DNA of 64,000 bases from an uncultured Acidobacteriota bacterium (GTDB lineage Bacteria > Acidobacteriota > Polarisedimenticolia > J045): NCBI GenBank assembly GCA_963702425.1, contig CAVPCQ010000021.1:32001-96000 (forward strand), in the 5' to 3' direction. Positions 1,607 to 34,621 of this stretch are shown one piece after another; position 1 is the first letter of the stretch, and each line of letters opens with the position of its first letter. The notes beneath the pieces are model-generated. The model was not told the origin of the DNA, ran no database searches, and saw nothing but the letters and a program-made list of their open reading frames with translations. The position numbers and the translations under genes are program-made.

Positions 1607-4600
1607 TTACGGGCAGACGCCCGAGCTGTTCTGGTTCCGCGGCCCCGTGGTCGCGTTACCGGCAGGCCCTTCGCCGCCGGCGTTCGCCGCGCGCACCAGG
1701 TACCAGTGCAGCCCGCCCGCCGGCGGCGCCTCCAGCAGCACCGGACCGGTGAACGGATCGGTCGTCGTCAGCCGCAGGCAGGAGTCGTTGGCCGCCGTGA
1801 CCAGCGCCGGCAGGTCGGCCCCGATGCCGCGGTAGAGCCGGTACGAGGTCGCGCCGGCGATCGGCTCCCACTGCTGGGCGGTCTTCCCGATCCAGGCCTG
1901 CTGGACCGGCTCGGCCGTCGGCGGGGCCGACAGGCAGTCGTTGCAGGCGTAGCCGGAACCGGTCGTCAGCTCGAGCGACCAGCCCGTGATCGTCCCGGTG
2001 TCGCTGCCCGCGGAGTCGACGGCCTTCAGCGTCCAGGTGCCGTTGGCCGCGATCCCGCTCAGCCCGCTCAGCGGGGCGTCCGGGATGAAGGAGCCGGTGA
2101 AGGGGGCGGTCCCGCTGGCGATCGGCGTCGTCGCCGCGTCGTCGAAGACCGTCTCGACGAAGTTGTCGCCGGACGAGCCGCGACGGTTCGAGAGCGCGAT
2201 CGGGACACCGTTGGGCCCGATCAGCGTGAGGGTCAGGTCGCCGTCATAGGTGTGCGTGATGTTGACCTTGACCTTCACCTTCTGGACCGGGTTCGTGTCG
2301 GTGACGACGATCGTGCTGCTCGCGCCGGTCGGATCGCTGTCCGGGATCGGCTTCGGAATGTCGATCGACGGGTAGGTGGTCGTGGCGTACGCCAGCGCAC
2401 CGACCTTCACCGTGAAGGGGCTGCTGAACGTCCCCTGGCTGGTCCGGACCGTCAGGACAAAGGCGATGTCGCTGCCGCACGGCACGCCCAGGCCCGCGAT
2501 GAAGCCGAAGTGGGGGACGACACTCGCCGCGGTCGCGTTGACCGCGAGATTCGGGTAGGTGGCGACCGCGCGCGTGACGTAGACATCCGGCGTGGTCGTG
2601 GTCAGCGTCGCCGAGACGCCCGCCAGGTCGATCGCGCCGTTGTTGCGGATCACGACCGGCAGCGTGACGTCGTCGCCGCGGTCGACGATTCCGTTGCCGT
2701 TGCCGGGGCCGCCCGCGGCGCAGGTATCGGCTGCCACGGAGAACGACTGGTAGACGGCCGACGGCCCGCAGACCCGCGGCTCGTAGGTGAACTGCAGGCT
2801 CCAGTCCTGGATCGTGCCCGAGTCGCCGGAGGCCGAGTCGACCACCTTCAGCTTCCAGGCGCCGCTCGCGACCTTGCCATTCACCGCGCTCAGCGGGTTC
2901 TCGGGGCGGTACGAGCCGCTGAACGGGGCCGTACCGCTGGCGATCGCCGTCGCGGCCGCGTCGTCGAAGATCGTGCCGGTGTAGTTGTCGCCGGACGAGC
3001 CGCGCCGGTTCGACAGGGCGATCGTCGTCCCGTCGGGGGCGACCAGGCTCAGCGAGTTGTCGCCATCGTAGGTGTGGGTGATGTTCACGACGACGTTCAG
3101 GTCGACGATCTTGTCGAGGTCGGCCACGTTGATCGTGCTCGTCGCGCCCGTCGCGTTGTTGTCCGGGATGGCGAGCGGCGTGTCCGTGCTGGTGTACGTG
3201 GCGTTCGTGTTCTGCAGGGTCGTGAAGAGGTAGTAGTTGCCGCCGTTGGTGTCCACCGTCGCGTTGCCGTGCGCGTCCACCGACTCGACCGCGTAGTAGT
3301 AGTTCGAGCAGGCGGCGAGCCCGGTCAGGGCCACGGCGTGACCGGTGACGAGGGCGCCGGCCGAGGTCGTCAGCCCCGGCGGGATCGCCGGCCCGTAGTG
3401 CACCACGCTGGTCGCCGCGTCGTCCGTCAGCCATTGGACCACCGCGCTGTTCCCCGTGACGCCCGACGCGAAGACGTTCGAGATCACCGGTGCATCGCAG
3501 TCGGTGCCGGCGGTGGTGCTGACCGGGACGTTGAAGTTCCCCTGGCCGTCGTCGGCGTCGAGGTAGGTGACCGTCAGCGTGTCCGCGTTCACGACGGAGA
3601 CGACGCCGTCGCCCGGGGAGGCCGGTGCGGCTGTCAGGGTGACCGTCCCCTGGAACCAGGTGTCGCGCGGCGCGGCGAGCCGCGTCAGGGTCACGCTCTC
3701 GCCGATCGTGTCGGTCTCGGAGGTCGCGGCGACCGTCAGCGTCGGCCCGGCGACGTTGGTGTCCTTGACGGTGATCGTTGCGCTGCCGGTGCAGCTATAG
3801 ACGTCGGCGTCCAGGCCGAGCTGCGCCCCGCAGGGCGCCGGCGGAAAGAGCAGCGTCAGGGACCAGTTGTCGATCGTCCCGGTATCGCTGCTCGCGTTGT
3901 CCACGACCTTCAGAGTCCAGTCGCCGTAGGACGCGATGCCGTTGAGGACGGCGAGCGGGCTTTCCGGCCGGAACGAGCCGGTGAACGGCGCCGTGCCCGC
4001 GGAGATCGCGGTCGCCGCGTCGTCGTCGAAGGCCGTGGCCAGGTAGTTATCGCCGGACGAGCCGCGCTTGGTCGAGAGCGGCACCGTGCGCCCGTCGGGC
4101 GCAATCAGCGTGAGGGCGATGTCACCGTCGAACGAGTGGGTGATGTTGACCGTCACGACGATCTTCGACACGTACTCGAAATACGGGACGTTGATCGTGG
4201 CGGTCGCGCCCGCCGCGCTGTTGTCGGGGATCGGCACGGCCGGACCGGCATACGGGTAGGTCGGGTTGGTGTTCGTGCCGGTGCGGAAGCTGTAATACGC
4301 GCCGCCGTTGGTGTCGGTCGTCGGGTTGCCGGCCGGGTCCGTCGACGTCACCGAGTAGTAGTAGGTCGTGCACGGGAGCAGGCCGGCCAGGTTGACGAGG
4401 TGGTTCACGGTCACGACGGCGCTCGATGCCGACCCCGCGACGGGCGGTGAGACGGTGTCGTACGTCACGGAAGCGGTCGACAGCTCGTCCGTGGTCCAGA
4501 CGACCTGGGCCGAGTTCCCGGTCACGTTCTGCGTCGCGACGGCCGAGATCATCGGGCCGGCGCAGTCGATCAGCGCAGTCGTCGTCACCGGCACGTTCAC

Positions 4601-6310
4601 GCCGCCGTTGCCGTCGTCCTCGTCGATGTAGAGCACGGTCACGACGTCGCCCGGGCGCACCGAAAGGTGCCCGTCGCCGTTGACCGGCGCGCCCGGGGTC
4701 ACCGGGAAGGTCCCGGTGAAGAAGCCGGACCCCGGCTCGGTGGCCGTCAGCACGACCGTCTCGGGCGCGGTCTCGGTGTTCGACGTGACGGTGACCGCCT
4801 GCGTCTCGTAGCCGCGCAGGTTGTCGTCGCGCAGCGTGATCAGGATCGTGTCGGTGCAGGCGTAGGTGGCGCTGTCGAGCGAGATCGACCCGGTCGGGTT
4901 GAAGGCGCAGACCACGCCGGCGACGCCGTCCATCGTCAACTGGCCGGTGACGTTCGGGTCCAGCCAGTCCGACAGACGGCTCGCGCTGGTGCCGCCACCG
5001 ATCCACGAGGCGTCGACCTTGCCGTACTCGTCGTAGGTGATGCTGGTGCACGACGCCGTGCCGCCGTGAAGCTGGCCGATGATGTGGTGGTTCTGGTCGA
5101 AGAGCGGCGAGCCGGAGGATCCGGGCTCGGTCGTCCCCTGCTCGTACTCCCCGATGCGCCAGTGGTTGGGGCCCCAGTTGCTGCCGTTCGTGGCCGGGTC
5201 GTCATCGTAGGCGATCTTCTTCACGTCGCCCCGCGGGTGGTGGATGACGGTGCTCTCGTTCGGGGGGGTCGTGCCGCGGTTCCAGCCGTTGTAGTAGGCG
5301 TTCCACGCCTCGAGCGGGCTGCCGTTCATCTGCAGCAGGGTGAAGTCGCTGCTGGCGTAGTTTGCCAGGACGGTCGCGCCGCTGACGGTCTGGGTGCTTG
5401 GAGGCGGCGGGTTGCCGCTCCCGCACGCCGAACGCTCGAAGTTGAACCCGAACACGGTGCTCGTGCCGGCATTGCAGTGGGCGGCGGTCAGGACGTAGGG
5501 CCGGCAGTCGTTGGCGGTCGTGTTGATCAGCGAGCCGGAGCAGAAGCCCTCGCCGCCGCTCAGCAGGATCACCGCGCCGCGCTTCTCGTTCTGCCAGTTT
5601 GCGCCGAGCGGACAGGCGACGTCGATGTTGCAGGAGCCGGAGTCGCCGATCCCCTTCTCGCCGGCCTTGGCCCGGCCGATCGTGCCGAACGGCAGGTAGC
5701 CGTGCGACACGGCGCCCAGGTGCAGCCGGGGCGCGACCCCCGCGAGCTTCGCGGGCCAGACCAGCTCGACGACGAGCTGGTCACCCTCGATCGGCGGCGT
5801 CCAGAGCTCGCCGTGGGGCCGGACGTCGGCGGCGGTGTACGAGCGCGGGCTCTTCAGCGCCGGGTCGTAGACGAAGAGGGTCGCCCCGTCCTCGATCCGG
5901 AACTCGTCGAAGCCCAGGACGATCCACAGCGCGTCGGCGGAGCGGACCGAGAGGCGCCAGATCCGGCCGCCGTCCTTCAGGTCCTCCCAGGTGCCGCTGC
6001 TCGCGGGCGAGAGGTCGGTCGCCATCCGGTAGCCGATCCGCAGCGGCGTCCCGAGCTTCCCGTCGCGGGTCGCGTCCTCCCGCAGCAGCTTCGGGACGTC
6101 GACCGGCGGCGACGTCCATGCGGCCACCTCGCCCAGGGGCTTGAGGCCTTCGCGCGCCGGCGAAACCGGCATCGCGGACCCGTCCGCGAGCGCGACGACC
6201 TGCAAGGCCGCCGACGCGAGCAGCGCGAGCAGTCCGGCGGCGGCACGGGACGGGCGGATCAGGCGGGACGGACGGACGGAGCGGGAACCTGGAGCCTGCC
6301 TGCGTGTCAT
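1607..6310 (-). CDS. Large secreted lysyl-endopeptidase-like (S1, Achromobacter protease I type) serine protease with Ig/FN3 modules, three proprotein-convertase P-domains and a C-terminal CP domain
   Basis: LTAAHC, SDFTLL, HHPRGDVKKI, TEPGSSGSPLF, GQLHGG, RLSDWLDP. Three P-domains (ITHTYDGD...L.L..P.G...SGDN...G.W.LKVVD....D.GTI..WSL). The ATG at 6310 is the likely start. Confidence 0.9.
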   Translation of the reverse strand: MTRRQAPGSRSVRPSRLIRPSRAAAGLLALLASAALQVVALADGSAMPVSPAREGLKPLGEVAAWTSPPVDVPKLLREDATRDGKLGTPLRIGYRMATDLSPASSGTWEDLKDGGRIWRLSVRSADALWIVLGFDEFRIEDGATLFVYDPALKSPRSYTAADVRPHGELWTPPIEGDQLVVELVWPAKLAGVAPRLHLGAVSHGYLPFGTIGRAKAGEKGIGDSGSCNIDVACPLGANWQNEKRGAVILLSGGEGFCSGSLINTTANDCRPYVLTAAHCNAGTSTVFGFNFERSACGSGNPPPPSTQTVSGATVLANYASSDFTLLQMNGSPLEAWNAYYNGWNRGTTPPNESTVIHHPRGDVKKIAYDDDPATNGSNWGPNHWRIGEYEQGTTEPGSSGSPLFDQNHHIIGQLHGGTASCTSITYDEYGKVDASWIGGGTSASRLSDWLDPNVTGQLTMDGVAGVVCAFNPTGSISLDSATYACTDTILITLRDDNLRGYETQAVTVTSNTETAPETVVLTATEPGSGFFTGTFPVTPGAPVNGDGHLSVRPGDVVTVLYIDEDDGNGGVNVPVTTTALIDCAGPMISAVATQNVTGNSAQVVWTTDELSTASVTYDTVSPPVAGSASSAVVTVNHLVNLAGLLPCTTYYYSVTSTDPAGNPTTDTNGGAYYSFRTGTNTNPTYPYAGPAVPIPDNSAAGATATINVPYFEYVSKIVVTVNITHSFDGDIALTLIAPDGRTVPLSTKRGSSGDNYLATAFDDDAATAISAGTAPFTGSFRPESPLAVLNGIASYGDWTLKVVDNASSDTGTIDNWSLTLLFPPAPCGAQLGLDADVYSCTGSATITVKDTNVAGPTLTVAATSETDTIGESVTLTRLAAPRDTWFQGTVTLTAAPASPGDGVVSVVNADTLTVTYLDADDGQGNFNVPVSTTAGTDCDAPVISNVFASGVTGNSAVVQWLTDDAATSVVHYGPAIPPGLTTSAGALVTGHAVALTGLAACSNYYYAVESVDAHGNATVDTNGGNYYLFTTLQNTNATYTSTDTPLAIPDNNATGATSTINVADLDKIVDLNVVVNITHTYDGDNSLSLVAPDGTTIALSNRRGSSGDNYTGTIFDDAAATAIASGTAPFSGSYRPENPLSAVNGKVASGAWKLKVVDSASGDSGTIQDWSLQFTYEPRVCGPSAVYQSFSVAADTCAAGGPGNGNGIVDRGDDVTLPVVIRNNGAIDLAGVSATLTTTTPDVYVTRAVATYPNLAVNATAASVVPHFGFIAGLGVPCGSDIAFVLTVRTSQGTFSSPFTVKVGALAYATTTYPSIDIPKPIPDSDPTGASSTIVVTDTNPVQKVKVKVNITHTYDGDLTLTLIGPNGVPIALSNRRGSSGDNFVETVFDDAATTPIASGTAPFTGSFIPDAPLSGLSGIAANGTWTLKAVDSAGSDTGTITGWSLELTTGSGYACNDCLSAPPTAEPVQQAWIGKTAQQWEPIAGATSYRLYRGIGADLPALVTAANDSCLRLTTTDPFTGPVLLEAPPAGGLHWYLVRAANAGGEGPAGNATTGPRNQNSSGVCP

Positions 6311-6508
6311 GAGCGCCCCTCTCACTGGACGAAACCCCACACTTCACCCGCGACGGAGCCGCGAGCCCAAAACTCCGGTGAAAGGTCCGGTTCCTGGCGC
6401 GTCGCGGCAAGGCAGAATCTGGCGGGGTCGCGCGGCCCGATCGGGCGCGGTGTCTTACCCGCGTAACGCGCGAGGTGCCTCCCCCTGTCCCCTATACTCC
6501 GCCCCGCC

Positions 6509-7981
6509 ATGGACACCCCCCGCAGCGAGGCCCGGCGCCGCCGGATCGAGGCCAGCCTGGACTGGCTCGCGCGCTACGACGCGATCGTCGACGACCCGGC
6601 CGCCTTTCGCGCCGCGCTCGAGCCTCCCACGCCGGTCGACCTGCTCGTCCACCCCGGACGCACGACGCCTGCGGAACTCGGCAAGGCACTCACCGCGCGC
6701 GGCCTCACCGTCGAGACCCTCGACTGGGCCCCGCACCACCTGCGCGTCGGCCCCGGCGAGGCGCCGCTGCCCGGCGCCGGCACGCTGCCCGAGGTGGTCT
6801 TCGGCTTCGCCCTCCCGCAGGGCGCGTCGAGCGCGACCGCGGCGCAGGCGCTCGCGCCGCGCGCCGGCGAGATCGTCGCCGACCTCTGCGCCGCGCCGGG
6901 CGGCAAGACCGCGCTGCTCGCGCTGCTCGCCGGCGACCGCGCGCGGATCGTCGCCGGCGACCCGTCGGCCGATCGCTGCGGCCTGCTCGTCACCAACCTC
7001 GCGCGGCTGGCGCTGACGGGGCCGCTGGTCGTGAAGCAGGACGCGGCGGCGATGCCCGCCGCGGCGCCGTTCGACGCGATCCTGCTCGACGCGCCGTGCA
7101 CCGGCGAGGGGACCTTCCGCCTCGCTTCCCCGCGCTACGAGCCGCGCGGCGAGAGCGGCTTCGGCCCGGCGTGCGCGCTGCAACGGCGGCTGCTCCACCG
7201 CGCGCTCGACCTGCTCGCGCCCGGCGGGCGGCTGGTCTACGCCACCTGCTCGTACGCGCCGGAGGAGAACGAGGAGGTCCTCGCCGCCGCACTTGCCGCG
7301 CGCGACGACGTGGCGCTGGCACCGCTGCCGGCCGGGACGCCGGGGCTCCCCGGCCTCGCCGCCTGGGGCGACCGGCGCTTTCCCGCGGAGATGGCGCACG
7401 CGCGTCGGCTCTTCCCGCACCACACCGGCTCGTGGGGCTTCTTCCTGGCGAAGCTGGAGAAGCGCGCCAGCGACGGCGGCGGCTCGATCGGCTCGCTCCT
7501 CGCGCCCAACGCGAAGGCCGCCGACGCGCCCCCCACCGACGACCCCGGAGCCCGCGCCGAACTCGCCGCCTTCCTTGCCGACCGCTTCGGCGTCGACACC
7601 GACTCCGCCCTCGCCGAGCACCTCGTCACCGCCCGCGGCCGCGACCTCTGGCTCCTCTCGCGTCCCGCTGCCCTCGCCGGCCACGACGTCGATCTGTCCG
7701 CGCTCTCCGTCGTCGCCCCCGGGATGCGCGCGCTGCACCGCACCAACACCGGTCCGCGCGCGACCAACAGCCTGCTGCGCTGGCTCGGCCCGCGGATCAC
7801 GCAGCGCGTCGCGGAGCTGGACGGCGAGACCGCGCGGCGGCTACTGGCATGTGGACCGCTCCCCTGCCTCGATCAATCACTGCGCGGCGCGGTCGCCGTG
7901 CGGGTGGACGGGGTCGTCGTCGGCGCGGGACACGTCAGGGACGGGATGCTCCAGTTCGAGATCCCCGCGGCCTGGCGCTGA
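6509..7981 (+). CDS. RsmB/RsmF (NOL1/NOP2/Sun) family RNA m5C methyltransferase
   Basis: DLCAAPGGKT, ILLDAPCTGEG, LVYATCSYAPEENE, RLFPH..G..GFFLAKL. Confidence 0.9.
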   Translation: MDTPRSEARRRRIEASLDWLARYDAIVDDPAAFRAALEPPTPVDLLVHPGRTTPAELGKALTARGLTVETLDWAPHHLRVGPGEAPLPGAGTLPEVVFGFALPQGASSATAAQALAPRAGEIVADLCAAPGGKTALLALLAGDRARIVAGDPSADRCGLLVTNLARLALTGPLVVKQDAAAMPAAAPFDAILLDAPCTGEGTFRLASPRYEPRGESGFGPACALQRRLLHRALDLLAPGGRLVYATCSYAPEENEEVLAAALAARDDVALAPLPAGTPGLPGLAAWGDRRFPAEMAHARRLFPHHTGSWGFFLAKLEKRASDGGGSIGSLLAPNAKAADAPPTDDPGARAELAAFLADRFGVDTDSALAEHLVTARGRDLWLLSRPAALAGHDVDLSALSVVAPGMRALHRTNTGPRATNSLLRWLGPRITQRVAELDGETARRLLACGPLPCLDQSLRGAVAVRVDGVVVGAGHVRDGMLQFEIPAAWR

Positions 7982-9137
7982 GGTCCGACGCGATCGCCCG
8001 CGCCGCCACCGCCCCGAACTGCGCCGCCGCGCGCACCGGCCCGGAGCGCGCCGCGGCGCGGCGAAAGGCCCACGACAGCACCGTGCCCGGCGGCGTCGTG
8101 CGTTCGTCGGCCGGCCGCGGCTCCAGCGTCAGCGCGCCGCCGGAGCAGCTCACGACGCAGACCCCGCAGCCGATGCAGCGCTCTCCGTTCACCGCGTAGC
8201 CGCTGTCACCCTCGACGATCGCGCCGGTCGGGCAGCGTCCCGCGGCGCAGGTCCCGCATAGCAGGCAGTCGTCGCCGGTGATCTCCGCGACCCAGTTGCT
8301 CCGCACCAGGAAGTTCGGCGCCTCGAACTCGTTCAGCCCGCGCAGGAAGCCGCAGCAACAGGGACAGCAGTTGCAGAGGAACATCGGCCCCTTCTGCACG
8401 TTGAAGGTGCAGTGGACCAGCCCCTCCTCCTCGAACCGGTCGAGCAGCGCCAGCGCCTCCTCGCGCGCGATCCGCCGGCCCCACGACGGGAAGTCCTGCA
8501 GCCCCTCGGGATCGGGCGAGATCGCAAGGCACGTCTCCGAGGTGTGGCTGCACGGCGACCCCAGCGCCGCCCTCTCCTTGCGGCAGATGCAGTCCATCAC
8601 GCGGAACGACGCGCCGTCATCGATGATCGCGCGCACGCGCTCGTAGCGCAGCACGGCAGGCGGGGCGTCGATGTGCACGCCGACCGGAACGACCCGCGCC
8701 ATCGCCGGGCGGTGTCCGCCGAGCTCCTTCATCAGGGCCGGTATGTACTCCTCGAACAGCTCCGCCAACTCGCGGTCGATCCGCGGCAGCTGGAACTCGT
8801 AGATCCCGATCACGAACGGAAGCAGCGAGTAGCGCGTCTCGCGCGCCGCTTCGCCCGCCGCCGCGTCGCCGGGCCCGCCGCCCCGCCGGACCGCGAAGAT
8901 CTGACCCTTCGCCGCCATCTCATCCAGCTGGTCCCGCATCGCATCGGCCGGCCGACCCAGCCGCCGCGCGATCGCCTCGACGCGCTCGGGAACCGGCAGC
9001 AGCGACGCCGCGACCGCGGCCTCGTCGGGGGAGAAGAGCCGCTCGAGGATCCTCAGCTCGACGCCCGACGCGGTCGCAGGGTAGCCATTGGGGAGCGCAT
9101 CGAGCGCGGCCGCGAGCTTCCGGTAGGCATCGCTCAT
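7935..9137 (-). CDS. 4Fe-4S binding protein with N-terminal HTH-like region and C-terminal ferredoxin domain
   Basis: C-terminal part of ORF 7935..10940; ATG at 9137 gives MSDAYRKLAAALDALPNGYP. Motifs CICRK, CNCCPCCC, CLLCGTC..RCP, CIGCGVCVVSC. Confidence 0.85.
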   Translation of the reverse strand: MSDAYRKLAAALDALPNGYPATASGVELRILERLFSPDEAAVAASLLPVPERVEAIARRLGRPADAMRDQLDEMAAKGQIFAVRRGGGPGDAAAGEAARETRYSLLPFVIGIYEFQLPRIDRELAELFEEYIPALMKELGGHRPAMARVVPVGVHIDAPPAVLRYERVRAIIDDGASFRVMDCICRKERAALGSPCSHTSETCLAISPDPEGLQDFPSWGRRIAREEALALLDRFEEEGLVHCTFNVQKGPMFLCNCCPCCCGFLRGLNEFEAPNFLVRSNWVAEITGDDCLLCGTCAAGRCPTGAIVEGDSGYAVNGERCIGCGVCVVSCSGGALTLEPRPADERTTPPGTVLSWAFRRAAARSGPVRAAAQFGAVAARAIASDLSARPRGSRTGASRP

Positions 9138-9269
9138 TGCCGCCTCCGGGCACACGGTACCACCGGCAAGGGTTCCGGGGTGGTCCGCGGCGGTTCGAGT
9201 TCGCGTCCGCCGCAGTTCGTATTCGCGCCTGCGCCCGGCGCCCGCGATCCGGGCCCTACATTCGACGTG

Positions 9270-11159
9270 ATGAGACTCGTCGCCCGCATCGCGCCGTTCG
9301 CCCGCATCGCCCGGGAGTTCGCCCTGGCGGGCGTCCTGCTCGCGGTCGCGGTCGCAGCCGCGGGCGGGACCGCGCCGGTCCGCGCGGCCGTCCAGCCCCC
9401 CGTCCTGAAATGGCAGAAGGGTGGCTGCTTCTCGAGCTGGTGCGAGACCGGCTGGTACTCGTCGCCCGCCGTCGCCGACCTCGACCGCGACGGCACGCCG
9501 GAGGTGATCGCTTCCGCCTACTCGATCGTCGCCCTCGACGGCCGCACCGGCGCGCTGGAGTGGCGGATCAGCTCGGGCCACGACCGCTCCCAGCCCGGCG
9601 CGTCGAACGTCGGCCGGACCTGGCCGGGGATCGTCGCTGCCGACCTCGACGGCGACGGCAGCGTCGAGATCGCCGCTGCGCACTCCGGCGGCTGGGTCTC
9701 GGTCTACGACGCGCAGGGCTACTTCAAGGCCGGCTGGCCGCGCCAGCCGACGACCTCCGAGCTGCGCGGCCTCGCCGTCCACGACCTCGATGGAGACGGC
9801 CGGCTGGAGGTGATCGTCACCGCGGCGATCGGCTCGCAGACCAACACGTGGATCTACAGCGCCGGGGGCGTGCTGCGCGCCGGCTGGCCGCAGCTCGCGA
9901 GCGGTGCGCCGGGCTACGCCTGGGGCGTCTACAACGCCAACGCCGCCGCCGGCGACCTGGACGGCGACGGCACCGGCGAGATCGTCGTCCCCTCCGATGT
10001 CCACTACCTCTGCGCCTACGAGGCCAACGGCCAGCCGATCCCGGCCAGCACCGTCTTCGGTGCCGGAAAAGTCTGGGGCCAGGTGGGCGTGTGGGAGAGC
10101 CAGGTCCCCGAGCTGCGCGGATGGGGCGCCTGCGACGGCGTGCGCGCCGAGAGCTACCGCACCAACTTCGCCGACGGCGCGGCGGTGCTGGCGGACCTCG
10201 ACGGCGACGGCACGCTCGAGGTCGTCGTCACCGGCAACACCTACGACTGCTCGCGCGATCCGTACCTCAGCCGCTACCACGGCGTGCACCTTTTCAACCG
10301 CGACCGCAGCCGCTACAACAAGGCGGGCCGCGACTGGCGCTCGCCCCCGGTCGACACCGGCGCGCCGATAGCGGAGGACTACAACACGATCGAGTCGGCC
10401 GAGCCGAACCCTGCCGTCGCCGACCTCGACGGCGACGGGACGAAGGAGATCGTCTACAGCGCGTACGACGGCCGCGTGCACGCCTTCTGGCTGGACAAGA
10501 CCGAGCACGGGAGCTGGCCCTACGCGATCTACCGCACAGCGGACGGCTTCTTCCGCTTCGCTTCCGAGCCGGCGATCGCCGACCTCGACGCCGACGGCAA
10601 GGCCGAGGTGATCGTCGCCTCCTGGACGCAGAAGGGGAGCAACGCCTACGGCCGGCTCACGATCCTCTCGTGGGACGGCAAGCTGCTGCAGCAGGTCGAC
10701 CTCCCCGCGCCGTTCGGCGGCGGCGACTGGAACGGCGCGCTGGCCGGCCCGACGCTGGCCAACCTCGACGGCGACGCGGACCTCGAGGTGGTGCTCAACA
10801 CGGCGCACAGCGGCCTCGTCGCCTACGACCTGCCCGGCACGGCCGGCGCGCGCGTGCTGTGGGGCTCCGGGCGCGGCGGGTTCCTGCGCGGCGGGGCCTG
10901 CGCGCAGCCGCGGCCGGCCGAGATCCGCGACTCGCTGCACGTCACGCGGAGCGGCACGGCCGACATCCGCCTCGCGTGGGGCGCGGCGGCGGGCGCGATC
11001 AGCTACCGCGCGTACCGCTCGACTTCGGCGCAGATGAGCGGCGCGACGCGGATCGGCGAGACGGCGGCGCTCGTCCTGCTCGATCTCGGCGCGCAGCGGG
11101 ACGGCGTCCGGGCGGTCTTCTACCAGGTGCGCGGCGCCAACGGGTGCGGGGTGGAGTAG
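9270..11159 (+). CDS. Secreted FG-GAP/VCBS repeat beta-propeller protein with shortened C-terminal FN3-like tail
   Basis: Signal peptide followed by about 8 repeats of ADLDGDGxxEI/VV (Ca-binding FG-GAP); start ATG 9270 inside ORF 8412..11159. Confidence 0.85.
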   Translation: MRLVARIAPFARIAREFALAGVLLAVAVAAAGGTAPVRAAVQPPVLKWQKGGCFSSWCETGWYSSPAVADLDRDGTPEVIASAYSIVALDGRTGALEWRISSGHDRSQPGASNVGRTWPGIVAADLDGDGSVEIAAAHSGGWVSVYDAQGYFKAGWPRQPTTSELRGLAVHDLDGDGRLEVIVTAAIGSQTNTWIYSAGGVLRAGWPQLASGAPGYAWGVYNANAAAGDLDGDGTGEIVVPSDVHYLCAYEANGQPIPASTVFGAGKVWGQVGVWESQVPELRGWGACDGVRAESYRTNFADGAAVLADLDGDGTLEVVVTGNTYDCSRDPYLSRYHGVHLFNRDRSRYNKAGRDWRSPPVDTGAPIAEDYNTIESAEPNPAVADLDGDGTKEIVYSAYDGRVHAFWLDKTEHGSWPYAIYRTADGFFRFASEPAIADLDADGKAEVIVASWTQKGSNAYGRLTILSWDGKLLQQVDLPAPFGGGDWNGALAGPTLANLDGDADLEVVLNTAHSGLVAYDLPGTAGARVLWGSGRGGFLRGGACAQPRPAEIRDSLHVTRSGTADIRLAWGAAAGAISYRAYRSTSAQMSGATRIGETAALVLLDLGAQRDGVRAVFYQVRGANGCGVE

Positions 11160-11160
11160 G
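11141..11160 (+). repeat. 20-bp direct repeat, copy 1 (CGGGTGCGGGGTGGAGTAGG)
   Basis: Exact match to 11887..11906; includes the stop codon of the FG-GAP gene. Confidence 0.85.
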
Positions 11161-11341
11161 GCCGGGCGTCTTGTGCCAGCGGCTCTTGGCGGCTCTGTCG
11201 ACGCTCAACTGAATCGGTCTCCGGGATCCCCGGGGCGGCTTACCTCTCCGCCTCCGACCGATTCACGCGAATCGGCAGGTGTACACTCCGCGCGTTCGGA
11301 TCCGCCTGCCCGTGCAGCGAAGCGTCGAGGAAGGAGCCGCC

Positions 11342-11906: not shown

Positions 11907-11990
11907 CGCCCGGCGGCCCCTTCGGGGGCCCCCTTCGCCCGGCGCGGCGGCTCGGGGTAGCCTTCCCGTTCCCGCGGAGGCTTCCCCACC

Positions 11991-13496: not shown

Positions 13497-14515
13497 GCCA
13501 CGCGCTGAGTGCCGTATCCGCCGGTCCGCGCGCCGTATCCGCCGGCCCGCGCAGCGCCGCCGCCGCGCTCGCCGCCGCGCTCGCCGCCGCCCTCCTCCTG
13601 CTCGCCCCCGCCTGCACCCCGCACGAGCACACGACCGGCCCGCGCGCCGTTTCCCCCGAGGCCCCGCTGCGCGTCGCGGTCACGATCCGCCCTCTCGAGA
13701 TGATCGTGCGCGAGCTGGTCGACCCGGCCGACGCGGCGCTGGTCCGGATCGATACGCTCATCCCTGTCGAGTCGACCCCGCACGGCTTCGACCCGCCTCC
13801 GGCGCAGGTCGCGGCGCTCGAGAAGTCCGACCTCGCGGTCTCAGTCGGCTACGGGCTCGACACCTGGGCCGAGAAGGTCCGCACCGGCCGCCCGCTCGTC
13901 GTCTTCGCGTCGCTCGAATCGACGCTGGACGGCACGGCAGCCCCCGCGGACGGCATGCCGCCCCACGCCCACCCGACGCACCACCCGGCCGCCGACCCGC
14001 ACCTGTGGCTCGACCCGTCGCTGGTCGCGCCGCTGGCCCGGGCAGTGACGGCGGCACTGAAGGCGCAACTCGCGCCGGGCGCGGAGAGCGCGGCGCTGGC
14101 GGCGCGGCTCGACACGCGGCTGGCCCGCTTCCTCGACGTCGTGGCGCGCACGGACGAGCTGACCCGCACGACGCTGGCGCCATACCAGGGGCGGGGCGTC
14201 GTCACTTTCCACGACTCGCTCCACCGCTACGCCGACCGCTACGGCCTGGTCATCGCGGCGGTGCTCAAACCGATCGAGGGGGTCGAGCCCGCCCCGGCCG
14301 ACCTGCGCCAGACGATCGACGAGGTCAAAGACCACGGGATCACGACCCTCTTCGTCGAGCCGGAGTACCCGACCACCGCGGCCGAGCGCGTGGCCGACCA
14401 GTCGGGGGTGCGGTTGATGTCGATCGACACGCTCGGCCTGCACGCAAACGACTGGCCGCAGATGATGGAGGTCCTGGCGCGGACGCTGGCCGAGGGGATC
14501 GGTGACCAGCCCTGA
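13493..14515 (+). CDS. Zn/Mn ABC transporter substrate-binding lipoprotein (ZnuA-like)
   Basis: Lipobox LAPAC; TPHGFDP, His-rich loop, DPHLWLDP, TFHDSLHRYA. Confidence 0.9.
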   Translation: MSHALSAVSAGPRAVSAGPRSAAAALAAALAAALLLLAPACTPHEHTTGPRAVSPEAPLRVAVTIRPLEMIVRELVDPADAALVRIDTLIPVESTPHGFDPPPAQVAALEKSDLAVSVGYGLDTWAEKVRTGRPLVVFASLESTLDGTAAPADGMPPHAHPTHHPAADPHLWLDPSLVAPLARAVTAALKAQLAPGAESAALAARLDTRLARFLDVVARTDELTRTTLAPYQGRGVVTFHDSLHRYADRYGLVIAAVLKPIEGVEPAPADLRQTIDEVKDHGITTLFVEPEYPTTAAERVADQSGVRLMSIDTLGLHANDWPQMMEVLARTLAEGIGDQP

Positions 14516-15302
14516 GGGCGCGCCGCTCGCGGCGCTTCCCGCCGCGAAGCCGGCCGTCGCCCTGGCCGGCGCGAGCTACACCTACCCGCGCGGACAAGTC
14601 GCCCTGGAAGACGTCCACCTCGACGTGCCGCCGGGCACGCGGCTCGGAATCTTCGGCCCGAACGGCGGCGGCAAGTCGACGCTGCTGCGGCTCGTGCTCG
14701 GGCTGCTGTCGCCCCAGGAGGGGCGCGTCGAGGTCTTCGGGCGCCCGCCGCACGACGCGGTCCGCGACGGCCTCGTCGGCTACGTCGCGCAGCGCCAGGC
14801 CGCGGAGCTGCGCGCGCCCCTGTCGGTCCGGCAGGTCGTGGCGATGACGGCGGCCCACGGCGTCCCCGCCTGGGCCCCGCTGTCGCGCGCCGCCACCGAG
14901 CGCGTGGAACGCGTGATGGAACTCGCCGGCGTCGCCGACCTGGCCGATCGGCCGATCGGGGCGCTCTCCGGCGGCCAGCAGCAGCGCGTCTTCATCGCGC
15001 GCGCACTGGCCGGCGCGCCGCGCCTGCTGCTGCTCGACGAGCCGACGGTAGGGATCGACCGCTCCGGGCGCGAGCGCTTCGCCGGGTTGCTCTCCGCCGC
15101 CCGCGCGGAGCTTGGCGTCACGCTGCTGCTCGTCACCCACAACCTCCAACTGATCGCGGCGACGTGCGATCGGATCGCCGTGCTGGCGCGCACGCTCCAC
15201 TACCACGACACGCCGGGCGGCCTGACGCCCGAGGTCCTGACCGAGGTCTTCCGCCACGACATCGCGCACGACTGGTCCGAGGACACGGGAGGCGACGGGT
15301 GA
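14502..15302 (+). CDS. Zn/Mn ABC transporter ATP-binding protein (ZnuC-like)
   Basis: GPNGGGKST, LSGGQQQRVFIARAL, LLLDEPTVGID. Confidence 0.9.
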   Translation: MTSPEGAPLAALPAAKPAVALAGASYTYPRGQVALEDVHLDVPPGTRLGIFGPNGGGKSTLLRLVLGLLSPQEGRVEVFGRPPHDAVRDGLVGYVAQRQAAELRAPLSVRQVVAMTAAHGVPAWAPLSRAATERVERVMELAGVADLADRPIGALSGGQQQRVFIARALAGAPRLLLLDEPTVGIDRSGRERFAGLLSAARAELGVTLLLVTHNLQLIAATCDRIAVLARTLHYHDTPGGLTPEVLTEVFRHDIAHDWSEDTGGDG

Positions 15303-28136: not shown

Positions 28137-28828
28137 CCGCCGTGAGCCTGCGCGTCGCGATCTTCGAGGACGATCCCGGCTACCGCGAGGGGCTGGCGGC
28201 GCTGCTGCGCTTCGCGCCCGGCTTCGAGCTGGTCGGCGTCTACGGGGCCGCCGCGTCCGCGGTCCGGGCGGCGGAGCAGGCCGCGGAGCGCGGCGAGCCG
28301 TGCCCGTGGGAACTGGTCCTCTCGGACATCGAGATGCCCGGGATGAGCGGGATCGAGGCCTGCCGCCGGCTCAAGGAGGCCTACCCCGGCCTGCCGGTGA
28401 TCGTGCTGACCGTCTTCGAGGAGCCGGCGACGATCCTCGACGCGATCCGGGCCGGCGCGGACGGCTACCTGCTCAAGCGCAGCACCGCGCCCGAGCTGCT
28501 GGCCGGGCTGCGCGCGATCGCGGGGGGCGGCTCGCCGCTGACGGCGGGCGTCGCGCGCTCGGTGCTGGAGCTGCTGCGGCAGGGCGAGGGCGGCGGCGCG
28601 ACGACCGGACCGGCATCGACCACCGCCCCGCAGCGCCTCGAGCTGGGCGAGCGCGAGCAGGAGGTCCTGCGCGGCCTGGTCCGCGGCGGGACCTACGCCC
28701 AGATCGCCGACGAGATGGGGATCAGCCTCGACACCGTCCGCGGCCACATCCGCTCGATCTACCGCAAGCTCCAGGTCAACAGCGCGAAGGCCGCGGTCTC
28801 GCGCGCGGTCCGCGAGCGGCTGGTCTGA
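28133..28828 (+). CDS. NarL/LuxR family two-component response regulator
   Basis: FEDD, LSDIEMPGMSG, LTVF, GYLLK; HTH REQEVL..L..G.TYAQIA..MGISLDTVRGHIRSIYRKLQV. Confidence 0.92.
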   Translation: MTAVSLRVAIFEDDPGYREGLAALLRFAPGFELVGVYGAAASAVRAAEQAAERGEPCPWELVLSDIEMPGMSGIEACRRLKEAYPGLPVIVLTVFEEPATILDAIRAGADGYLLKRSTAPELLAGLRAIAGGGSPLTAGVARSVLELLRQGEGGGATTGPASTTAPQRLELGEREQEVLRGLVRGGTYAQIADEMGISLDTVRGHIRSIYRKLQVNSAKAAVSRAVRERLV

Positions 28829-28865
28829 GCAGGTCCCGCGCGGCCGGCTAACTGCCGCTTTCGCA

Positions 28866-28885
28866 GACCCGCATCTTCATGCCGG
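28866..28885. promoter_or_regulatory. Second copy of the operator candidate, upstream of the secreted-protein operon
   Basis: GACCCGCATCTTCATGCCGG versus GACCCGCATGATCATGCGG. Confidence 0.5.
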
Positions 28886-28938
28886 TGCCGCCGCGCTCCG
28901 CGACGGGACACTCCTCCCGTCTCGTGGAGGAGCCTCGG

Positions 28939-29491
28939 ATGCGCCCGGTCGTCGTTGCCGTCCTGCTCGCAGGTGCCGCTCTCGCCGGCGGTACCGGCCC
29001 TCGCCCAGCAAAGCGCCAGCTACAAGCTGACCGAGAGCGCCGTCAACGCCGGCGGCCGCCCCGTCAACGGCGCGGGCGCCTCGTCCGCCAGCTACCGCGT
29101 CAGCTTCGACGCGATCGGCGACGCGGTCGCCGGCGGGGCGCCGTCGAGTGCCTCGTACCGGCTGGGCTCGGGTTTCGTGTCCTGGTTCCCGCCCCCGGGT
29201 GAGGCCAAGGGGCTGCGCTTTTCCGACCGGACCACGCTGCGCTGGGACCCGGAGCCGTCGGTCGGCACCTACAACCTGTATCGCGACTTCGTCTCCGCCC
29301 TTGCCGGCGGCGGGACGGGCACCTGTTTCGTGAATGGTGTCTCCACCGAGCAGGCGTCCGACGCGGGGAGTCCCGGCGCCGGCAAGGGCTTCTTCTACCT
29401 CGTCACCGCGAAGAACCGGCTTGCCGAGGAAGGGACCAAGGGGAAACGCAGCAGCGGCACTGAGCGCCCGAACGCGGCGCCGTGCCCGTGA
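28939..29491 (+). CDS. Small secreted protein: SASY-repeat N-terminal domain plus C-terminal CP domain (frameshift near 28990)
   Basis: GGAGGAG RBS; signal MRPVVVAVLLAGAALA; SASYKL / SSASYRV / SSASYRLGSGF repeats; ends FFYLVTAKN...ERPNAAPCP. Confidence 0.75.
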
Positions 29492-29505
29492 GAGAGGACT
29501 CCGCC

Positions 29506-31621
29506 ATGAGGATCGCCCGCCCGCTCCGCACTTCGCCCGCCGCGCTCGCGGCGCTGCTGGTCGGCGCGCTGACCGCTCCCGCCGCGCGACGCCGCCGCTC
29601 CCCCGCCGCTCGTCAACTACCAGGGCGTGTTGCGCGACGCCGCGGACAAGCCGCGCAGCGGCTCGTTCGACATGGTCTTCCGGTTCTTCAGCGCGGCTTC
29701 GGCCGGGGACGAGATCCTGGTCGACTCGCGCCTCGCCGCGAACGCGCTGGCGGTGACGGTCGGCAACGGGCTGTTCAGCGTGCAGCTCGGGGGCGGCGTG
29801 GTCGGCGACGGCTCGGGACCGGGCACCTACACCTCGCTGGCCGACGTCTTCCGCGACTACGCCGCGGTCTGGCTGCAGCTCGAGGTCGGGCCGGCGGGCG
29901 GGGCGCGAGAGACGCTCAACCCGCGCGTGCGGATCGTCGCCGCGGCCTACGCGATGAACGCGAGCACGGCGCAGAGCGCGCTCGACGCCGCGAACCTGGG
30001 CGGGCGCGCGCCGTCGGCCTTCCTCGACACCTCGTCGACGTTCCAGACGAAGTCCGGCGGGCTGAAGGCGCAGGAGGCATCCACCAACACGGCGGGGATC
30101 TTCGCGAACTCCGGCTCCGGTGTGAGCCTGGCGACGGCCTTCTCCGGGTTGCTGGCGAGCGGTCCTGTCACGGGCGGCGAGTTCTACAACGACTCGAGCG
30201 GGAGCTTCGCCCTCCTGAGCAACGGCAACGACGGCGTCGTCGGCCGCGGCCAGTGGGGCGGCTGCGAGACCTGCGGCGCGGGAGGCGTCTTCTCGTCGGG
30301 GACACTCTACTCCGGCCAGGCGTCGCTCTCCGTCGGGGACACGGGGCTCGTCGCCTCGGGTGACTTCGCGGCCGGGATCTTCCGCGAGAGCGATTCCGGC
30401 GCGAGTGCTTACCTCGGCTACAACAGCACCGGCGTCGCCGGCTTCGCCGTCAATCCGGGCGAGAATCCCGCCTACTTCGAGGACTCGTCCTCCGGACTGA
30501 CCTGGGCCGCGGTCGGCCAGGCCGGCTTCAAGATCAAGGGGACCGGCGGCGTCAGCTTCGTGCAGAACCACCCGTTCGACCCGACGGCGGAGATCGTATA
30601 CACGGCGCCCGAGGGGGACGAGGCCGCCGTCTACACCCGCGGTTCGGCGCGGCTCGTGAACGGCGAGGCGCGCGTGCCGCTGGGCGAGACGTTCCGGCTG
30701 GTCGCCAACCCGGACATCGGGCTGACGGCGCACGTTACGCCGCGCGGCGCGTGGGCCGACCTCTACGTCGCCTCGGTGACGACGGAGGAACTGGTCGTCC
30801 GCAGCCGCGACGGCCAGACGCCCGACGCGGCGTTCGACTACGCTGTCTGGGGCCTGCGGATCGGCTTCGAGGAGCGCCCCGCGATCCGCCCTAAGGAGCG
30901 CAACGCGCCGCTCCCGAGCCGCGCCCCGGACGAGGCGCTCTTCGCGGCGCGCCCCGATCTGCGCGCGACGACTCCGCTGGCGCGGTTCGCGGCGATGCGA
31001 GACGACGGCGCGGTGGCCGGCGCGCGGCCGCTGGACCTCGACGCGCTCGCGTGCGCTCGCCGCGGCGATCGACGCGGCCTCGCCACCGGAGTTCGCGCCG
31101 GCCGCTCCGCGCGCGGGGCGCGTCACCACGGCCGACTCGCCGCCCGCGTCGACCGGGCGCGACCGCGGCGGGACCGGTGCCGCGATGAAGCCGGGCCCGA
31201 TGTCGCAACCCGGCCCCTCGAGCCCACCACGCTCCCCGCCTCCCTGCCCGGCGCGCTTCCCGCTCCGATCGCCGAGCGGGTCGAGGTCGGCGACGTCCTC
31301 GCCGCCGATCCGCTGCGCCCGGGGACGCTGGTCCGCTCCGGTGCGGGGCTCGAGGCCACCGTCGCCGGGATCGTCGCCGGCGCGCCAGGCTCCGTTTTCG
31401 ACGGTGAGGCGCCGCTGGCCTTCGCCGGCACGATCGTGTCCGTCAAGGCCGACGCGACCGCGCAGCCGATCGCCGCGGGCGACCTGCTCGTCGCGTCGCC
31501 GCTGCCGGGCCACGCGATGCGGGCCCCGGACGGTCCCGCCGCGGGAACCGTCGTGGCGAAGGCGCTCGAGTCGCTCCCCGCAGGGACCCGCATGATCCGC
31601 GCCCTCGTGATGTCGCGCTGA
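29506..31621 (+). CDS. Secreted tail-fibre/adhesin-like protein with C-terminal intramolecular-chaperone-like domains (frameshift near 29590)
   Basis: VNYQGVLRD..G.FDMVFRFF...NGLFSVQLG N-domain; Gly-rich beta stalk; FVQNHPFDP..IVY..PEG...YTRG; GDLLVAS..PGHAM...GTVVAKALE. Confidence 0.7.
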
Positions 31622-31647
31622 CCAGGAACCGCCTCGGAGGAATTACG

Positions 31648-34621
31648 ATGCGTCCCACGATCTCTATCTCGCCGAAGCGCCTCGAACGAACGCTCCTCTT
31701 CGCCCTGTTCACTGTCGCGGCGCCGCTCGGACCGGCGGCCCTCGCCGGTGACGGCACCGTCACGGTCCGCGCCCTCGAGGCCCACATCGCGAAGGAGGGC
31801 AACGACGACATGTTCGGGCCGCAGCAGGACTTCTACGTCTGCAGCGACTTCGAGCAGCAGGGAATGCTGGTCACCAACCCGGAGATCGGCAACCACGACC
31901 ACGCGAGCTGGCCCAATCCCATCCCGCGGATCAAGGTCGTGCCGGGAAAGAATCAGCGGTTCTTCGACATCTACTTCGAGCTCTGGGACGACGACGACAC
32001 GACGGCCCACGAAGGATTCGACATCAACCCCCAGAACGGCCCCGTCGTTCCCGGACTGCCGAGCAATCAACCCCTGCACCTATCAGAACAGCATCAACGG
32101 CGTGTTTCCGCACATCAGGTACGACGTCTGCACCGGCGAGCTCGAAGTCAGCGGGGTCAACGGCTCACTGCCGATCCGGATCGGGAACGGCAGGGCCCAG
32201 CTCAACGGGATCAACACGCTGCCGGGAGGGTTCGACAACTCGGCTCGCCTGATCTTCGAAGTCACACGCGAGCCGAGCAACTGGCTTCCGGACGACGTCG
32301 CGATCACGACCGTCGAGATCGTCCAGTCGGTGAAGGGCGCGGTTGAAGCCGTCGTCGACAAGCCCACGTCGCTGCTCGTCACGATCTCCAACACGCATCC
32401 CTTCGACCTGACCGCACCGGTCACGGGAACGCTCACCGACGGGACTCACGACCGTCGCTGACTCGAAGCTGATCTTCATCGAGCGCGGAACACCCGAGCG
32501 GCCGAGCGAAACGCTCGTCGCGCTGTTCGACGGGGCGAACGCGCCGCCGTTCCGCCCGCAGAAACTCGCGGCCTTCGGGAACGGCAAGGTGAGCGGATCG
32601 GCGCAGGTCGTCTACCAGGAGTCGCTCTCCCCGAACGCGCCGCCGCAGCTCATGGACTGCGCCAACATCAACAACATCGGCGACGCGACGGAGCTTCCGC
32701 TCAAGAAGACGACCGACCGGTACACGCTCTTCATCCGATACGATTACGAAGAGGACAAGAACGTCATCACGTTCCCGCAGCTGCAGGCGATGCAGTCGCG
32801 CGAGGACGCGCTCCGTCTCGCCTCGTGGCCGCTCGCGGCGCTCGACTCCCACATCTCGTCGACGATGCTGTTCCACGACCACGGCAGCTGGTTTCCGTTC
32901 TTCGAGCCGTTCACCTCGGTCCTGGGGCTGAGCATCGGCGCTCAGCTCGGCGGCATCGACCGGATGGTGCTCTCGGTCCGCAACAACTGGTTTGCCGAGA
33001 ACCTGTTCCGCCACCAGTTCATCGCGAACGGCACGATCGGCTATTCGCTCGGTTGGTTCGCGCCGCACGCGGTTCTCGCCGAGGACGGCTACTTCGGCGT
33101 CGCGGTCCACGAACTCGGGACACACGTACGACCTGAGCCAGCACGCCTGCAACACGGGCGGGTACGACGAGTACGCGATGACCGCGCGAGTGCGGCGCGC
33201 CGTTCACCGGGGAGGGGTTCGACCCGGCGGGCACGCTGTTCCCGACGGGCTACTTCTCATCGCGCGCGGGACTGCGTTGCCCGGAGCGCGAGCCGATCCC
33301 GGGGGAGGTCTGCGCAGCCGAACATCATGGATGCGAACTCCCCGGTCCGGTACGACAACTGGATCGACCCGTTCACGTACCACTACCTGATGGACAAGGC
33401 GCTCCCACACGTCGATCCGCCGCTGCTCGCGCTCGCAGCCGTCGTCCACCTGCCGAACGGTCCGGGGGACGGCTCGGCACCGCCCGTGATCGAAGGCTCC
33501 CTGCCTCTGTCCGCGTACCAGTTCATGGGCAACCAGGACCTCGAGATGGCGCCGCTGTCGTTCGACGGCGAGACGTTCCTCGGGGTGGGGCCGTACCGGG
33601 TCCGGTTCGTCACGCCGACCGGCGTCCGCGAGTACCGCGTCGAGCCGCACATGATCGACAGCGCGAGTTCACCGGAGCAGATCGGCGCGATCGCGCTCAA
33701 CTTCCCCTGGGACCCGGCGACGGTCCGCATCGAGCTGCTCGGGCCGGTCGACCTGCGCAATGACGGCTGCTGGAACCGCTACTGCCCCGGCGACAGCGTT
33801 CTCCTCGCGTCGCGCCTCGTGTCGCCGGCCGCGCCGTCGGCGAGCGACCTGCGCGCGGGACGCGACGCCGCGGCTCCTCCGACGCCGCCGGGCAGCACGC
33901 CGGCGACGCCGACGGTCGGTCCGAACCACGAGGCGGTCGTGTCATGGACCGCGAGCGACGCCGATTCGCCCGAACTGCGCGCGACCCTGCTCCTCGCGCC
34001 GCAGGACGCCGCCGGCGGCACGGGCGGCCCGTCGACGCCCGTCGGCATCGAACTCACGGGAAGCAGCTTCCGGATCCCGCACACCCTCCTGGCGGACGCG
34101 CCGGGGCTCTACACCGGGCGCGTACTCGTGTCGGACGGCGTGAACACCGCCGAGGTCTCTCGCGGGCAGCTGTTCAGCATCTGCAACCTGCAGAACGGCG
34201 GTCTCGAGCTGTGCAACGGCGTCGACGACGACTGCGACGGCCTCACCGACAATACCCCGCCGGGACCGGTCGAAAGCGTGATGCTCAATCCGCAGCCGTA
34301 TCCACCGACTCCGGCCGGCACTCGAGCGGCTCACGTGGGCGCAGCGGTCTCGCCGCGCAGACGTTCGACATCGTCTTCGGTGACGCCGTCGCCCTGCGCG
34401 ACTCGGTCGGCGACTTCTCCCGCGCGACGCTCGGCTGCCTCGCGAACGACATCACCTCCGATTCGTTCGGGCCGCTGCCCACGCCGGAGGCGGGCGGTGC
34501 GTTCTGGTTCGACGTGCGCGCCAGCAACTGCGCCGGCCCCGGAAGCTACGACCCCGGCGATCCGGGCCAGCGCGGGACGCGGGACGCGGGGATCGCCGCG
34601 TCGGACCGCGGGTGCCCGTGA
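31648..34621 (+). CDS. Secreted zinc metalloprotease-like multidomain protein with C-terminal CP domain; multiple apparent frameshifts
   Basis: GGAGG RBS and signal peptide; ORF pieces 31648, 31748, 32589 and 33944 join into one gene. HELGHTYDLSQH is restored by removing one base near 33120. ELCNGVDDDCDG motif; ends FWFDVRASNC...RDAGIAASDRGCP. Confidence 0.65.

Follow-up and report, generated by a model that had tools for sequence, protein, structure and literature searches.

What does a C-terminal domain shared by otherwise unrelated secreted proteins do in an uncultured member of the Acidobacteriota, and what reads it? The question is raised by a 64,000-nucleotide stretch of DNA (the window; positions 32,001 to 96,000 of contig CAVPCQ010000021.1, or G000:C21:32001-96000) from a source genome, G000, of 5.1 Mb and about 71% GC with many frameshifts. 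Three proteins encoded in this window end in a domain of about 95 residues that closes with Cys-Pro-stop and is termed the CP domain here. The CP domain is a real, unnamed and lineage-wide C-terminal tag that is not a member of the T9SS (type IX secretion system) and probably works like the T9SS C-terminal domain (CTD) or a dockerin. The reading preferred here, with a probability of roughly 0.5, is that of a docking tag that is retained on its cargo and read by a dedicated secreted receptor across the lineage; the broader statement that the CP domain is a receptor-read sorting tag, with retained docking and cleave-and-attach taken together, is likely to hold.

The CP domain and its cargo

A sequence-only reading of the window had placed one module at the ends of four signal-peptide proteins, and all four tails are present in the window translations at the positions given here. 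Three of them carry the clasped domain, namely a trypsin-like protease of 1577 residues with FN3-like and P-proprotein domains (gene 1607-6340, minus strand; tail 1607..1906), a small helper protein whose copy was folded and used in the complex model described below (tail 29210..29491, plus strand), and a metalloprotease-like gene in which a MopE-like Cys/Asp motif precedes the domain (gene 31648-34621, plus strand; tail 34270..34621). All three keep an internal Cys and end in Cys-Pro-stop, as had been observed. The fourth tail, that of an FG-GAP protein (10941..11159, plus strand; gene about 9270-11159), had been taken for a shortened copy and is instead a separate, short and unclasped terminal fibronectin type III (FN3) domain, termed type B, that has neither the internal Cys nor the Cys-Pro end and is missed by the CP profile A1 at E<1e-3. 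The reported absence of a membrane anchor stands, with no transmembrane helix in the tails and any additional one in only 1 of 72 tagged open reading frames (ORFs). In this assembly the signal peptide of the small protein (ATG 28939) is out of frame with its own body, and the metalloprotease gene is broken up, with one of the frameshifts, near 34340, falling inside its tail; in the same-genus genome G004 the small protein is whole and the metalloprotease tail is in one frame.

The structure model of the small-protein CP domain is a β-sandwich with a predicted local distance difference test (pLDDT) score of 94. Its top structural matches are all FN3, and residues 1-78 superpose on the bacterial Fn3-like modules 3mpc and 5g56 (Z 7.9-8.4; for 5g56, Z 8.4 and a root-mean-square deviation of 2.1 Å over 72 aligned residues), with a weak profile match at E 1.7e-4. 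The CP domain differs from these modules in a helix inserted between strands C and C', in a short G strand with only isolated bridges after strand F, in a clasped tail that is unmatched up to the Cys-Pro, and in its terminal placement. None of 61 CP members matches any Pfam or NCBIfam family, including PF00041 and the T9SS CTD models, at E<=0.1, none of the 61 tails matches the dockerin family PF00404, and in the ESM Atlas only unnamed Acidobacteriota clusters are found, at 0.95-0.96. No account of the domain or its receptor was found in the open literature, a coverage that leaves out subscription journals and supplements. The domain thus remains without a family name, as proposed at the outset, and its fold is a variant of FN3. 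The tag, type B, an anti-sigma domain and the repeats of a PorU-like protein score about as well with a generic FN3 profile as with one another, and the last two were accordingly rejected as special relatives of the tag, the relationship being unproven when the generic profile scores the same.

Conservation of the two cysteines fits the disulfide closure that had been suggested, in which the internal and the terminal Cys probably form a clasp holding the tail to strand C'. A further Cys in the FG loop is always accompanied by a Cys upstream of the domain (27 of 27 domains, versus 20 of 43 that lack the FG-loop Cys), which suggests a second staple of the tag to the cargo side; paralogues inflate the p value of this association, and the upstream linker Cys often lies within a MopE- or TSP3-like motif.

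A first profile was iterated from the four tails, and a fixed profile, A1, was built from 61 terminal copies; counts rest on A1 because the iterated profile drifted into plain FN3. With the iterated profile, G000 gives 125 matches in 113 ORFs, 99 of which end no more than 5 residues from the stop codon, and a Cys-Pro end is present in 68 of these 99 as against only 9 of 3452 non-matching ORFs of at least 500 residues, a share much higher than chance would give. With A1, 91 full-length matches are found in 87 ORFs (78 within 8 and 80 within 10 residues of the stop codon) and none in reversed ORFs. The expectation of dozens of copies per genome is thus borne out, and that of nearly exclusive C-terminal placement on Sec-type proteins holds for the most part: 52 of 72 tagged ORFs are signal-peptide-like, judged by a hydrophobicity heuristic and by eye rather than with SignalP, and 11 of the 91 copies, about one in eight, are internal, including a weak one that is FN3-like. 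Of the 80 terminal copies, 79 have the internal Cys and 74 the terminal Cys. Both are also retained in internal and tandem copies, as would be expected of a binding module. The protein at G000:C30:45152-50176 lacks a terminal CP domain but carries four internally, interspersed with TSP3-like repeats, and its relatives P0012, P0017 and P0032 are alike, which may represent a multivalent use of the module.

The cargo is diverse. The 74 cargo ORFs form 56 clusters, and the domains found among 48 that were scanned include S8, M4, M10, M23 and C1 peptidases, GH10, GH39, FG-GAP, Kelch, BNR, TSP3, MopE-like, VWA and cohesin. Among signal-peptide-like ORFs free of transmembrane helices, the CP domain is on 34 and type B on 14 of the 222 with at least 500 residues, and on 20 and 9, respectively, of the 71 with at least 800 residues. 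The type B profile, built from 22 hand-picked examples and therefore partly circular, finds 33 terminal ORFs outside the CP set. By comparison, 40 random untagged signal-peptide-like ORFs belong mostly to envelope-type families (S9, S41, S49, M1, M28, sulfatase, amidase, efflux), with 14 unassigned and 3 cytoplasmic false positives at a threshold stricter than that of the cargo scan. A second, different C-terminal domain ending in C-P/Q is present on three large secreted proteins of G000 (C19:64350-70214, C30:14635-18681 and C34:36740-39346).

The domain is lineage-restricted, as anticipated. All 21 relatives match the CP profile, and 85 of 301 genomes of the phylum match at E<=1e-3, tallied as 60 strong (best E 3e-8 or lower) and 25 weak, FN3-level genomes. 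The strong set comprises all 28 genomes of the class, the families coded f17, f18, f33, f35, f53 and f70, and one single match in f16. With 150 scored, one single-contig genome of the class yields at least 148 matches. In the best loci from five other genomes of five families the domain is terminal in 30 of 30 cases and among database homologues in 41 of 47; a strict terminal rule is contradicted by 9 of 33 representatives, a sample biased towards multi-copy proteins, that have a strong domain and no terminal copy. A whole-library search cannot size the family because FN3-repeat proteins make up 117 of the best 150 matches. The closest relatives of G000 bear the label uncultured Acidobacteriota, and its probable class is Candidatus (Ca.) Polarisedimenticolia, the name given to homologues of its tagged proteins and of its receptor. 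Two tagged homologues labelled Planctomycetota and Deltaproteobacteria, which lie on 3-6 kb bin contigs, are not taken as proof of a wider range. The Ca. Polarisedimenticolia are among the most prominent Acidobacteriota of marine sediments and encode many secreted proteases, and the accessible part of that report does not mention a C-terminal domain (10.1101/2020.10.01.322446). The tag is on roughly 2% of genes and, with its candidate receptor, would serve to mark extracellular proteins in several uncultured lineages.

The place that the CP domain occupies on homologous proteins is informative about its role. The window protease has 1953 homologues, and among the best 120 a T9SS CTD (PF18962) is present on 48, a Pfam dockerin on 8, with further ones dockerin-like by eye, and a CP domain on 13 (12 terminal); none of these proteins combines a T9SS CTD with a CP domain. 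This slot swap indicates that the CP domain fills the place of lineage-specific localization modules, and it does not separate an export signal from a docking module. The dockerin-like tails of proteases from other phyla (P0233, P0234, P0246, P0251, P0256, P0266, P0274, P0287 and P0311) also end in x-C(-P), and a Cys-closed C-terminus thus recurs on unrelated terminal modules.

The T9SS CTD of the Bacteroidota is served by a PorV shuttle and the sortase PorU, in an account that also covers SigP (PMC5445135). It resembles the CP tag in being a folded β-sandwich that closes many unrelated Sec-exported proteins at their very C-terminus and in taking the same slot on homologous cargo; the CP tag differs in its FN3 fold with a probable disulfide clasp, its lack of a PF18962 match and its internal copies. 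Dockerins, which fold as a helical EF-hand pair, are non-cleaved terminal modules of diverse enzymes, as the CP domain probably is, that dock on a partner (for the CP domain a predicted one) and fill the same slot on protease homologues from other phyla. Compared with the dockerin-cohesin system (PF00404/PF00963), the CP tag is a β-sandwich, its predicted partner is a single-domain protein that is not a cohesin and for which no repeated scaffold was found, and its binding is predicted to occur by strand addition. The tripartite C-terminal (CTERM) signals also are C-terminal, numerous per genome, placed on unrelated signal-peptide proteins and marked by an invariant Cys; the CP tag differs from them as a folded domain of about 95 residues without a transmembrane helix or basic cluster, in which the Cys pair appears to be structural. 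Acidobacteria and PorU are not mentioned in the accessible part of the account of these signals (10.1101/2023.06.07.544157).

A candidate receptor

The new element is a specific candidate receptor, the SNMGFK protein, which is encoded in a PorU-like locus outside the window. It is a secreted protein of about 190 residues that is single-copy in G000 and matches no family, and its model shows two repeats with a pLDDT of 85. A PDB fold search gave no match at Z>=5, a result that shows neither novelty nor absence. The motif S-N-M-G-F-K directly follows an A-x-A-type signal-peptidase site in 117 of 120 homologues, and all 120 have an H-Y/F end. A profile search finds the protein in 22 of the 36 tag-positive genomes (19 with the first profile) and in none of the 44 tag-negative ones, and two further copies in f17 that the search missed were read directly from their loci.

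With receptor alignment A5 and tag alignment A1, the complex model scores 0.94 in three runs, compared with 0.00 for the best of three controls. Of 157 solved pairs 116 attain this mark, as do 2 of 215 mismatched ones; both counts are only roughly valid for alignments of our own, and the score expresses model confidence and carries no affinity information. The runs agree in at least 90% of contacts, with a partner pLDDT of 91, and, given the lack of a PDB match for the receptor at Z>=5, the model is unlikely to have reproduced a similar complex from its training. In the predicted interface, receptor residues 5-9 lie antiparallel alongside residues 63-58 of the tag on the exposed edge of strand F, surrounded by receptor Y117/H118 and C-terminus and, on the tag, by the helix, P55, G78-S82 and R86. 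On the receptor, this interface coincides with the most conserved residues (0.68 vs 0.40, p 3e-7).

Gene fusions and neighbourhoods are consistent with this pairing. In two Anaerolineae loci a receptor-type domain (E 2e-20 and 6e-19) is fused directly to the small protein's S-S-x-Y region, receptor paralogues alternate with CP-tagged genes in G185, and one protein of G005 holds both a receptor-type repeat and a terminal CP domain.

In the mechanism that is proposed for the retained docking tag, cargo would cross the inner membrane by Sec and then be oxidized in the periplasm. The tag is predicted to fold as an FN3 sandwich with a G strand that stops early, its tail turning back and being held to strand C' by the putative Cys clasp, so that strand F would lack a partner at its start (G-x-x-F-F-Y-L). 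The receptor would then complete the tag sheet with its N-terminal SNMGFK strand. The tag most likely stays on the cargo and would tether it via the receptor at, or en route to, the cell surface, and passage of the outer membrane is probably provided by a type II secretion system (T2SS)-like cluster, a step assigned by elimination. Internal copies argue against a purely disposable signal. An anti-sigma factor encoded just upstream of the receptor, with an FN3 domain that lacks strand G, may sense free receptor.

Completion of an incomplete Ig-like fold by a partner strand, as predicted for the tag, recalls the donor-strand complementation of chaperone-usher pili and of the Pam pili of the candidate phyla radiation (CPR) (PMC13278184). 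The small protein of the window adds to this likeness, its N-terminal region giving a weak match to PamT, a CPR pilus tip protein, at E 4e-5 and far below the cut-off. The CP system differs from donor-strand pili in showing no sign of a polymer and in having one predicted receptor for about 80 different clients and a receptor fold without a solved match at Z>=5, and from the T9SS in that the predicted partner is a small soluble two-repeat protein rather than a barrel.

Several observations weigh against a retained tag with a dedicated receptor. In 12 of the 36 tag-positive genomes no receptor was found; these are fragmented bins, the search missed two known copies, and such misses can also hide among the tag-negative genomes. 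The receptor has no membrane anchor, and a lipobox is present in none of its 120 homologues. The tag side of the predicted interface is not more conserved than the rest of the domain (0.44 vs 0.40, p 0.27), the binding is a prediction only, and the receptor may have an affinity for FN3 edges in general. Furthermore, some of the 40 sampled untagged proteins look extracellular (S8, CotH/LTD, PKD, Kelch). If the pairing is specific, it would constitute a new small tag-receptor pair with a receptor fold that has no PDB match. A tag shared by about eighty unrelated exported proteins, together with a predicted partner that grips it, suggests a route of surface sorting that has not been described before. 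With the tag and a named candidate receptor at hand, a two-protein binding test is feasible in E. coli and does not require culture of the host.

The PorU-like locus and competing explanations

The receptor gene is part of a conserved gene order, common to tag-bearing lineages (G000:C6:219-236 kb), that comprises PqqD, a radical S-adenosylmethionine (SAM) enzyme, a 38-residue peptide with a Cys pair, a PorU-like C25 peptidase, an extracytoplasmic function (ECF) sigma factor, an anti-sigma factor, the SNMGFK protein, a variable second secreted protein and sulfatases. A PorU-like C25 peptidase together with an ECF sigma factor is a further likeness to the T9SS, and the locus suggests a different fate for the tag. 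It could be a cleave-and-attach signal that operates without the T9SS translocon, the receptor acting as a PorV-like shuttle to the PorU-like enzyme, which would cut off the tag and attach the cargo to an anchor at the surface; the radical SAM, PqqD and peptide genes may take part in making this anchor. We regard this alternative as doubtful, and the evidence on the enzyme is divided. The PorU-like protein (about 1200-1500 residues) has intact His and Cys motifs and PorU itself as its best PDB match (6za2, E 2e-22), but it scores only 124-181 bits with the NCBIfam PorU model NF033707, for which the cut-off is 420. Of the 60 strongly tag-positive genomes, 55 have Pfam C25 by tally, as against 79 of the 241 others. 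When 80 genomes were searched with the PorU-like profile A3, 29 of 35 tag-positive genomes had a full-length match, 2 had fragments and 4 had none, and the best 31 matches were all from tag-positive genomes; this profile was built from tag-positive genomes, and kin are not independent. In a quick C25 tree, 32 of 33 tag-positive sequences fall on one side of a branch with an SH-aLRT (approximate likelihood-ratio test) support of 100, the exception being a second copy in G015, and a tail of 223-439 residues is present on all 33 and absent from 16 of 18 tag-negative sequences. An RpoB tree of 28 genomes, the deep part of which is poorly resolved, needs 4 changes of the tag label, 2 of them forced by well-supported branches, which indicates that the tag-positive set may not be one clade.

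Against cleavage and attachment, PorU-like C25 with the radical SAM enzyme and PqqD is also common in genomes without the tag, and the cognate 38-residue peptide precursor directly precedes the PorU-like gene, so that the enzyme may serve the peptide or a neighbouring surface protein instead. The 11 internal copies and the apparent stapling of the tag to the cargo side through the FG-loop Cys also speak for a tag that is kept. In its favour, PorU-like C25 enzymes of tag-negative Acidobacteriota (L134, L136-L139, L141-L143, L145-L147) are often fused behind a long passenger and an FN3-like 'NLGF...HGP' domain, an arrangement that is a possible cis sorting unit. In either case the locus provides a lead to the role of PorU-like C25 enzymes outside the T9SS.

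Combining these elements, we tentatively propose that several deep Acidobacteriota lineages, including Ca. Polarisedimenticolia, might possess an undescribed surface-display pathway in which 80 to more than 148 proteins per genome bear an incomplete FN3 tag that a novel-fold receptor completes with its N-terminal strand, leave by a T2SS-like route and are joined by PorU-like transpeptidation to an anchor derived from the radical SAM peptide genes, with a tag-mimicking anti-sigma factor sensing receptor load; as a whole this scheme is improbable at present. If true, it would represent a T9SS-like attachment logic that evolved without the T9SS.

The remaining genes of the locus add observations of their own. 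The peptide (G000:C6:234121-234540, minus strand; L074 about 14120-14540; also L066, L067, L068, L070 and L077-L106) has about 38 residues with a YEKP-type leader and a C-x6-C core and is a candidate for an undescribed ribosomally made, post-translationally modified peptide (RiPP) tied to a secreted C25 enzyme. The radical SAM/SPASM enzyme beside PqqD passes no NCBIfam cut-off. The periplasmic part of the anti-sigma factor (G000:C6:221539-222054, minus strand; L109-L122) is an FN3 domain without strand G that, in 9 of 14 cases, ends 1 residue past strand F. The gene that follows the receptor gene (G000:C6:219374-220786, minus strand; L108-L125) encodes a highly variable secreted protein, often with a Cys as the first residue after the signal peptide, and is a candidate S-layer-like protein. 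The receptor and this neighbour show atypical codon use (GC content at third codon positions 0.75-0.77 vs 0.96-0.98), which does not decide between high expression and a variable locus. In f33, the PorU-like proteins L089, L091, L096, L100 and L102 have a different recurring domain at their ends (F-R-I...V-N-x-D-G-G), which might serve this family as a second tag.

A third possibility, which we consider unlikely, dispenses with the receptor altogether: the CP domain would be an autonomous FN3 module that binds a surface glycan or substrate, or just caps the C-terminus and makes it more stable, and has spread by domain shuffling, the receptor model being an artefact of exposed β edges and the co-distribution a result of kinship. 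The FN3 fold, the comparable scores of the generic FN3 profile, the internal multi-copy use, the lack of conservation on the tag side of the interface and the unrelated second domain family in G000 that also ends in C-P/Q are all compatible with such a module. It is opposed by the 88% terminal placement across 56 unrelated cargo clusters, the mutual exclusion with the T9SS CTD on homologous cargo, the strong and controlled complex score on invariant residues of the receptor, and the receptor fusions and pairings with CP-tagged genes.

The strong form of the sequence-only reading, in which the tag is the recognition signal of a dedicated new outer-membrane translocon, is very improbable: cargo of up to 2000 residues must cross the outer membrane and the tag becomes more frequent with protein length, but no translocon of T9SS type was found and a T2SS-like cluster is present in G000, G107 and G023 (read by eye except for the secretin). 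SprA, PorV, PorP, GldM and UPF0164, the first four a further difference from the T9SS, were found in none of five tag-positive genomes (two of them single-contig), a weak negative in that only the PorV search matched a control; PF18962 was not found in the same five genomes, the control genome also being silent, and Peptidase_C25 is present in all five. A heuristic list of barrel-like proteins of G000, made with no tool annotation, contains no unassigned very large barrel. What remains of the predicted co-variation with an unassigned outer-membrane machinery is a set of co-distributed envelope genes that includes one predicted tag binder. Similarly, the analogy to the T9SS CTD holds for the slot shared with Bacteroidota homologues and not for a translocon, and 'surface-attachment or sorting tag' fits the CP domain better than 'outer-membrane export signal'. 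In the heuristic lists, a barrel-like protein of about 730 residues is encoded with a peptidyl-prolyl-isomerase-like and a lipoprotein-like protein at G000:C6:309707-317071 (minus strand).

Other genes of the window

Upstream of its CP domain, the small protein consists of the frameshifted signal peptide and an S-S-x-Y repeat region (28939..29209, plus strand), and it is adjoined by a fibre-like gene without a tag (29506..31621, plus strand; frameshifted near its start) that gives a weak match to the N-terminus of a Bdellovibrio MAT fibre (E 0.004). Pairs of a small tagged S-S-x-Y protein and an untagged fibre-like gene recur in G000, at 28939-31621 of the window and at C1:3826-10912, C25:3-5705 and C32:12948-15959, which suggests that the tagged member is a helper for carrying or anchoring a trimeric fibre. 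The gene directly downstream of that for the protease encodes an M14 carboxypeptidase (1..1598, minus strand); it leaves the window and ends in a type B FN3 domain outside it. A secreted Kelch-repeat protein of about 2000 residues (44578-50727, minus strand) is untagged and ends in a plain FN3-like strand set.

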